DNA of 35,726 bases from Octopus sinensis. Lineage: Eukaryota. Shown here one piece after another: positions 28,358 to 28,633 of this stretch. Both the position numbers and the translations under genes were made by a program. Numbering within the stretch: the first letter of the stretch is position 1; every line of letters begins with the position of its first letter. Under the pieces are notes generated by a model. That model was given only the letters and a program-made list of their open reading frames with translations, did no database searches and was not told where the DNA came from. Where the stretch lies: contig NW_021828061.1 of NCBI RefSeq assembly GCF_006345805.1, forward strand, positions 1 through 35,726. Reading direction: 5' to 3'.

Positions 28358-28633
28358 TGAATTCTTCAGCCACCGGTTCTCAACATACACTGATAAACAG
28401 TTTCGCCATGGGCTCTTAGGAGCACAGTTCGATTTGTTTTTTGCTCCGCCTCTGTTCTGTTTTGTTTTTCCAACGGATTTCCTTTTTTCTTCCTGAAGAG
28501 AAAGACACAATATGGTCCCATTATTCAATCGGATTTTGGTAATTTGTGCCTTTCGAAACACGTGTAGAATGAAATAAAACGATTTCTGTTCAATCTGCGT
28601 TCAGCTCCATTTCTTCAATTCACCAATAATGTT
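28358..28633 (+). repeat. Right arm (pseudo-LTR) of the Penelope-like element
   Basis: TGAATTCTTCAGCC...CACCAATAATGTT pairs with 27049-27325. Confidence 0.97.
28483..28577 (+). ncRNA. Type I hammerhead ribozyme (PLE-associated, palindromic stem III)
   Basis: CTGAAGA at 28493-28499. Stem II GAAAGACACAA/TTGTGCCTTTC (10 of 11 pair). GAAA at 28555-28558. Stem III is the ACACGTGT palindrome. GUA cleavage triplet at 28564-28566. Stem I TTTCTTC/GAA(T)GAAA. Confidence 0.85.

Follow-up and report, generated by a model that had tools for sequence, protein, structure and literature searches.

On its sequence, the window (the whole 35,726-nt stretch of Octopus sinensis DNA that was analysed) is confirmed to hold a type I hammerhead motif at 28483-28577 on the + strand, in the 3' end (pseudo-LTR) of a Penelope-like element (PLE). 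We hold, with moderate confidence, that this hammerhead, with its elongated and conserved stem II, would be slow as a single copy, would work best as a pair joined through stem III, and would be masked at this locus, in read-through RNA, by its own inverted twin.

The hammerhead motif and its host element

Positions are given below relative to 28567 (+1), the predicted cut falling after A28566. The CUGAAGA, the 55-nt stem II domain, the GAAA, the palindrome and the cut after 28566 that had been predicted from the letters of the locus are all present as described (Table 1), with GAAA at 28555-28558 and stem III a perfect 8-nt palindrome, ACACGTGT, at 28558-28565. The features that mark the class were found, namely CUGANGA, GAAA, UH with A15.1-U16.1, and an open helix I flanking the cut site. 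The three core-proximal pairs of stem I are invariant in 25 sequences, with 86% of cells paired, and in the most distant subfamily stem I is a perfect 6-bp helix; it has a low probability in the predicted ensemble and is absent from both minimum folds (monomer and dimer). An AATAAA at 28573-28578, near-invariant across subfamilies and lying 7 nt downstream of the predicted cut, could have a second role as a polyadenylation signal.

Table 1. Features of the hammerhead locus and its host element in the window
Feature	Positions	Strand	Remarks
Hammerhead core, 5' half (C3-A9, CUGAAGA)	28493-28499	+	Identical in 14/15 sister-subfamily representatives; the remaining one differs at N7 only
GAAA, palindromic stem III ACACGUGU (28558-28565) and cleavage triplet GUA (28564-28566)	28555-28566	+	Predicted cut after A28566
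Stem I, 5' arm	28486-28492	+	Pairs with 28567-28574
Stem I, 3' arm	28567-28586	+	Near-invariant AATAAAA 28573-28579; weak distal helix to 28477-28482, 77% paired
55-nt stem II domain	28500-28554	+	Outer helix 28500-28510 / 28544-28554, inner 31-33 nt
Candidate inner hairpin, ATTC 28523-26 / GATT 28532-35	28523-28535	+	Predicted; one U.U mismatch in window family
Inverted 5'-truncated second arm with twin hammerhead (core 27189-27116)	27046-27325	-	Outer end corresponds to 28636
Inversion junction with 17-bp tandem duplication	27314-27351	.	
148-nt tail between two recurring 3' end sites (+70, +218 from predicted cut)	28637-28784	+	
Direct arm: 5'-truncated element (ORF end, ~900-nt 3' region, pseudo-LTR), ending in (TA)n	27341-28784	+	97-99% identical to other copies
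C-terminal GIY-YIG endonuclease remnant (AVY..YVG, CNLC)	27341-27886	+	5'-truncated, frameshifted near 27820, last motif lost

Twenty CUGANGA matches occur in the window, and only the hammerhead and its twin score with a model built on the family, at 110.6 and 110.8 bits against at most 15.3 bits elsewhere, the window copy being included in the training set of that model. The Rfam search proposed as a check in the original prediction gave no hammerhead: on 27050-28780 it returned five matches at E<=10, with no hammerhead family among them, and on the whole window no hammerhead was found among the 150 listed of 239 matches. The stem II insert is the likely reason for this miss, and hammerhead chemistry is not defined by an Rfam score.

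The host is, as classified from its sequence, a young Hydra-like Penelope-like retrotransposon, and the assignment of the hammerhead to a PLE made in the original prediction is borne out by the RT and GIY-YIG unit and by the pseudo-LTR context. A first look with the 3' region gave 780 candidates in the 2.72-Gb genome, and the 44 scored matches were all 98-100% identical. The 25-mer at +16 to +40 has 2,962 exact genomic matches, against 0 for the reversed control, which puts the number of 3' arms in the genome at about 3,000. L035 and other loci contain the complete unit, 3,639 bp long and bearing both the RT and the endonuclease motifs; it carries a single ORF with RT and GIY-YIG endonuclease, open over ~900 aa at several copies; a non-LTR retrozyme (150-450 bp non-coding tandem unit) is ruled out by this length and coding content. 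The window copy cannot move itself, because its endonuclease remnant is frameshifted. In all 28 loci listed, the shared 3' end is followed by (TA)n.

By eye, the ORF carries the Hydra-clade motifs SDKTRN, IRWL (K changed), AVY-12 aa-YVG and CNLCVSE..N..CPH, with no CCHH in the endonuclease; the Hydra clade is characterized by DKT, RWK, CxxC and CxH around a conserved E and N, and (TA)n targets (PMC8557442). The CxCX5C linker before the endonuclease is present in the relatives P0005, P0010 and P0013 and absent here, with one cysteine in the window family and no cysteine over the stretch of the L229 linker examined. We file the element as Hydra-like because it lacks this linker and its unit exceeds most in length. 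At L041:3888-5723 and L229-L268, a long Ser/Asn-rich insert replaces the CxCX5C linker, yet insertion is into (TA)n; in Hydra elements this linker is tied to (TA)n targeting (PMC8557442). Pfam gave no family for the endonuclease remnant, for a 612-aa ORF piece or for two relatives, and a homolog search with the short endonuclease remnant found none. Octopus sinensis is the database name on the closest protein match, part of which is 100% identical to the genome. The protein P0002, a sister-subfamily ORF piece, is annotated 'myb-like protein I', apparently a misannotation.

Two short-linker Hydra-type families were also seen in this genome. One (L277, ~2545-2600) has, by eye, a hammerhead-like core CCGAAGA with a 31-nt stem II and an ACUC-A-GAGU stem III; the other (L269-L274, L276, L278-L283) has intact 720-aa ORFs and no CUGANGA within 900 nt after the stop, its hammerhead being further away, altered or lost. 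Neither family matched the long-arm model in the 20 loci searched, with a best score of 15.1 bits. Elsewhere in the window, a dispersed repeat of 120-170 nt, probably a SINE, occurs in both orientations (6050-6184, 11979-12145, 15595-15766, 17892-18033 and 29783-29954), and long near-perfect hairpins lie in microsatellite-rich sequence at 18855-19105 and 32920-33412.

Conservation across sister subfamilies and the long stem II

The window family is so young that it varies too little to be informative, 126 of its 164 entries (counting overlapping loci) being identical; sister subfamilies were therefore compared, using 40 of 150 matches to a diverged ORF piece. The motif was found by descriptor in 34 of these 40 loci, and a covariance model recovered damaged copies in four of the other six. 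All catalytic positions and the cleavage triplet are kept across the sister subfamilies, which are 81-98% identical in RT DNA; loss of the core across copies, which the original prediction had named as evidence against it, was therefore not what we found. Stem II measures 55 nt in 31 of the 34 loci and 49, 53 and 54 nt in the remaining three.

Among 25 distinct sequences, the outer stem II helix (12 positions) has 90% of cells paired, as against 30-48% in slid-register controls, and 4 of its 12 pairs are changed on both sides. Covariation across genomic copies, another check put forward with the original prediction, gave a score of 0.171 against 0.127 +/- 0.008 in shuffles, none of 500 shuffles reaching it, whereas a count of 5 two-sided changes among the pairs is no more than shuffling gives, 285 of 500 shuffles reaching that count. 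An RT tree of 31 rows arranges the subfamilies (L229-L266, L040) as one ladder on which the stem II changes are single steps, and these single steps amount to about four events. Along the same ladder toward the window family, stem III passes from TA through TG to CG and the pair 10.1-11.1 from G-U to G-C; a CpG would have been gained if the window family is the youngest, the root of the tree being uncertain.

In the eight most distant representatives, identity to the window is 100% in the core, 74-84% in the stem II interior and 66-76% in the pseudo-LTR just downstream. For the 3' UTR lying 200-600 nt upstream, it is 33-43% in seven of the eight and 22-35% in the other. The inner 31 nt of stem II are thus only slightly better kept than the downstream pseudo-LTR in these distant subfamilies.

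The closing strands of stem II, GAAAGACACAA and TTGTGCCTTTC, span 11 positions and form 10 pairs with one A.C mismatch (28505/28549), so that the 11-bp closing helix of the original prediction is right in its extent and one pair too generous. Its predicted pair probabilities are 0.89-0.99. The helix begins at G10.1-C11.1, a pair that is G-C in 7 and G-U in 17 of the 25 sequences, and a twelfth position, unpaired in the window copy, is paired in 21 of the 25. The inner GGTCC/GGATT helix that had been proposed alongside it was rejected by the comparative test across the 25 sequences, with 64.8% of cells paired and one pair broken in 22 of them. A candidate hairpin, ATTC/GA(A/T)T, with 97% of cells paired and one-sided changes only, appears to fit the stem II interior better. 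As a candidate for the tertiary contact that the original prediction had allowed for in stem II, UUAUU (28521-25) matches AAUAA (28573-77) in the stem I internal loop, with 97.6% of cells paired and both 5-mers almost invariant; this match has no covariation, 0 pairs being changed on both sides. RNAalifold was tried and set aside: it recovered the outer stem II only and put a non-hammerhead pair into the core.

Stem III, tandem copies and copy ends

In the monomer fold the predicted pair probability of stem III is 0.01, the intermolecular stem III duplex is predicted at -10.3 kcal/mol, and the two-copy minimum fold forms the 8-bp intermolecular helix (-45.3 vs 2 x -16.5 kcal/mol). The stem III centre in intact sister copies (n=32) is TA in 10, TG in 18 and CG in 4, self-pairing in 32 of 32, and the A and U flanking it never vary; of the three natural stem III strengths, that of the window palindrome is predicted at -10.3 kcal/mol and the other two at -6.0 and -7.0 kcal/mol. 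Two transitions passing through a wobble give the series CG-UG-UA, and pairing would survive them even if no dimer were selected. Invertebrate hammerheads have this form of stem III, 2 bp with a tetraloop, and a single repeat cleaves at about 0.8 per min in coral and about 0.1 per min in mussel (PMC7229834); because such repeats cleave singly, the need for a partner that the original prediction raised is not established, although the predicted folds and the self-pairing centres make a dimer plausible. Its description of a "palindromic minimal stem III" likewise holds for the palindrome and not for "minimal", this being the usual invertebrate size (PMC7229834), and since published Hydra motifs are equally short and mostly palindromic (PMC8557442), the palindrome is an ordinary feature. 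Metazoan PLE motifs are described as inactive as monomers and weak as dimers (PMC4209133). On balance, a dimer would be the likeliest mode of cleavage.

The opposite-strand twin is present as predicted, its CUGAAGA at 27189-27183 (-) lying within a 280-bp inverted repeat of 98.9% identity. It does not suit the part of a partner, since it would sequester the core: in the predicted fold of the 27046-28640 RNA, all seven core bases pair with the twin, and transcription entering from either flank would run into the antisense arm before the sense arm. The twin would then be an insertion by-product that masks the core in read-through RNA rather than partnering it. The original prediction had looked for a partner only in trans or on a convergent transcript, but the family has partners in cis, in head-to-tail units at 3,639-3,640 bp spacing (L044, L049, L050, L077). 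Among the first 100 listed arms, counted by eye, about 70 are in inverted pairs, the commonest form, and 4 are in direct tandems. By our own count, the outer ends lie near +70 in one arm and near +218 in the other in 25 of 25 simple two-armed insertions (L043-L078, L035, L038) with both outer ends in view, one complex locus being excluded; the window has its ends at 28636 and 28784. This regularity suggests two fixed priming sites, each used once per insertion.

Because reverse transcription starts downstream of the site, at +70 and +218, copy ends can record RNA ends. Most copies are made from RNA uncut at the hammerhead site: of 30 long arms extending into the upstream unit, about 16 run past the hammerhead there (own count), and we estimate that roughly nine in ten arms pass the cut site. 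Full-length copies starting at the cut were looked for and rejected, the 5' ends of long arms being scattered from +211 to beyond -2000 with one at +15. This frequent read-through agrees with the anole PLE, in which uncut RNA is the main insertion substrate, the hammerhead was cut only with protein added and its mutants still inserted (PMC11167929); that study also found no reads at the cut site.

Matches to short arms in 18-nt bins, with intact copies bearing small errors included, numbered 210 at +8 to +25, 289 at -9 to +9 and 212 at -30 to -13. When 96 arms of the middle bin (99 of the first 100 listed of the 289, duplicates dropped) were mapped finely, 22 proved intact and 74 truncated, 27 of the 74 ending at +2 to -2 (p=0.004 vs a uniform spread); without five manual re-calls, 25 of 77 ends fall there (p=0.025). 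Follow-up in 5-nt bins, by eye, gave 43 ends at +3 to -2, 25 at -3 to -7 and 14 at +24 to +20, and in fresh contigs (C7 onward) the pile-up was not replicated against the adjacent upstream bin, with 23 ends vs 20 at -3 to -7 and 6 at +24 to +20. Other clusters lie at -19 to -22 (~24 in 100, by eye) and at microhomology hot spots at +8 and -8/-9. Copy ends are therefore enriched over a broad zone at the hammerhead and not sharply at the cut, an enrichment that stalling at a folded core, or fold-back at the palindrome, accounts for as well as cleavage does. Two contigs start precisely at 28567; with words of 31 letters, a variant 30 bases further along, at 28597, accounts for that start.

Mode of action and comparison with known systems

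In the stem-III-joined pair that we favour, a transcript through head-to-tail units would bring two hammerheads 3.64 kb apart into contact, their ACACGUGU strands pairing into an 8-bp helix; each core would cut at the GUA of its partner and release unit-length RNA, which may be re-joined into a circle as in the model of PMC4209133. As reverse transcription starts at +70/+218 and usually reads through, the template would be mostly uncut, or cut and re-joined, which argues for a gated rather than a constitutive ribozyme. With an arm of 11-12 bp, loop II would lie too far away to make the loop I/II contact that is usual, in keeping with low monomer activity; the conserved inner 31 nt would likely be a handle, either in folding or for the protein of the element. 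A more specific proposal, which we consider unlikely, is that the 55-nt stem II is a lineage-specific gating domain that removes the loop contact and binds the RT-endonuclease or a partner RNA, so that cutting would occur only in tandem transcripts, the few percent of copies stopping at the hammerhead recording RNA folded or cut in vivo. If that proposal is true, long-armed hammerheads would be a common class in cephalopod PLEs that standard searches have missed.

The motif could instead be a competent monomer, in which the long stem II gives a new tertiary contact (e.g., UUAUU/AAUAA) that props the 2-bp stem III. The near-invariance and high pairing of the two 5-mers are in keeping with such a contact, as are the stem I-II pseudoknot used by about 40% of hammerheads (PMC3088659) and the cutting of invertebrate hammerheads with the same stem III form as single repeats (PMC7229834). 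Yet no UUAUU/AAUAA pair is changed on both sides, a 5-bp A/U match between A/U-rich loops is, by our estimate, expected about once by chance, UUAUU overlaps the candidate inner hairpin, and fast cutting is at odds with the observed copying of templates through the site, since it would destroy them; we therefore give the monomer only a small chance. The motif might also be kept mainly as a protein-bound structure or as a translation aid for the downstream ORF, with cleavage rare or in need of protein. The protein-dependent anole hammerhead and its still-inserting mutants (PMC11167929) are compatible with such a role, as are the type I hammerheads ahead of viral ORFs that promote translation initiation (PMC13725137), the conserved sequence and exact length of the inner stem II and the lack of a sharp pile-up of copy ends at the cut; retention of all catalytic positions and the cleavage triplet, however, points to chemistry rather than shape alone, and we regard this role as improbable. 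That the motif is a chance or decayed sequence free of selection is a reading in line with the missing Rfam match and with the near-identity of the young window family (126 of 164), but it is largely refuted by the conservation and compensatory change over subfamilies of 81-98% identity in RT DNA and by a position equal to that in published Hydra elements, and we hold it to be very improbable.

The closest published counterparts are the hammerheads of Hydra-clade PLEs (PMC8557442), which are likewise type I and near the 3' end, with CUGANGA/GAAA and a short, mostly palindromic stem III (acac-a-gtgt, acag-ta-ctgt), in elements that share the ORF with RT and C-terminal GIY-YIG, the (TA)n insertion and an inverted 5'-truncated copy drawn as typical. 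They differ in stem II, which has at most 26 nt in 26 Hydra rows (3-7 bp, loops of 3-10 nt; PMC8557442 File S2) against 55 nt here, and in the unit, which is below 3 kb for most Hydra elements (PMC8557442) against 3.64 kb here, where CxCX5C is also absent; in sequence, the octopus motif differs from the listed Hydra-1_oBim motif (PMC8557442). Metazoan PLE hammerheads (PMC4209133) resemble it in the pseudo-LTR, a helix II longer than canonical, a palindromic helix III, the dimer model and opposite-strand twins, theirs 100-700 bp apart. Their helix II of 6-8 bp nevertheless compares with 10-12 bp and an inner 31-33 nt here, and the octopus motif has no extra nucleotide between A9 and G10.1 as those motifs do (PMC4209133). 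A helix of 6-8 bp already counts as long (PMC13725137). An arm of similar size, 9 bp with a 35-nt loop (about 53 nt) and marked as deviating from canonical, belongs to PLE-X1_sMoe of Selaginella (PMC8557442 File S2), which is however a plant, endonuclease-less element of another clade (PMC8557442).

The anole Poseidon element PAc (PMC11167929) is alike in its two reverse-transcription starts that define a tail, its A/T-rich targets, its hammerhead upstream of the starts and its uncut main template, with a tail of 30-40 bp as against 148 nt here and an ORF that starts within the hammerhead rather than ~250-270 nt downstream of the cut, as in the tandem copies here. Invertebrate and axolotl retrozyme hammerheads share the helix III of two pairs and a tetraloop (PMC7229834); retrozymes, however, are short non-coding tandem repeats, and in corals their hammerheads are of typical helix size and make loop-loop contacts (PMC7229834), in contrast to the autonomous octopus element with its long helix II.

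The role of the hammerhead in PLEs is still described as a question (PMC8557442), and with ~3,000 arms, natural tandems, a subfamily ladder and three stem III strengths, the octopus family puts the questions of the dimer and of the long arm within direct reach of experiment. Such long-armed motifs escape Rfam and short-stem descriptors; as the core biology is already known, the gain is moderate. Our literature search found neither the octopus family nor a 55-nt arm in animal elements, in a coverage outside which lie the 2017 Terminon paper and the figures and supplements of PMC4209133, where long-loop examples could occur. What the window adds, as judged from these alignments, is that the motif is tied to an autonomous coding element and that comparison bears out both the outer helix and the fixed length. 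Taken together, the core, the palindromic stem III and the twins are known from related elements, and the feature that appears new is the long arm, about twice the published Hydra-clade maximum.
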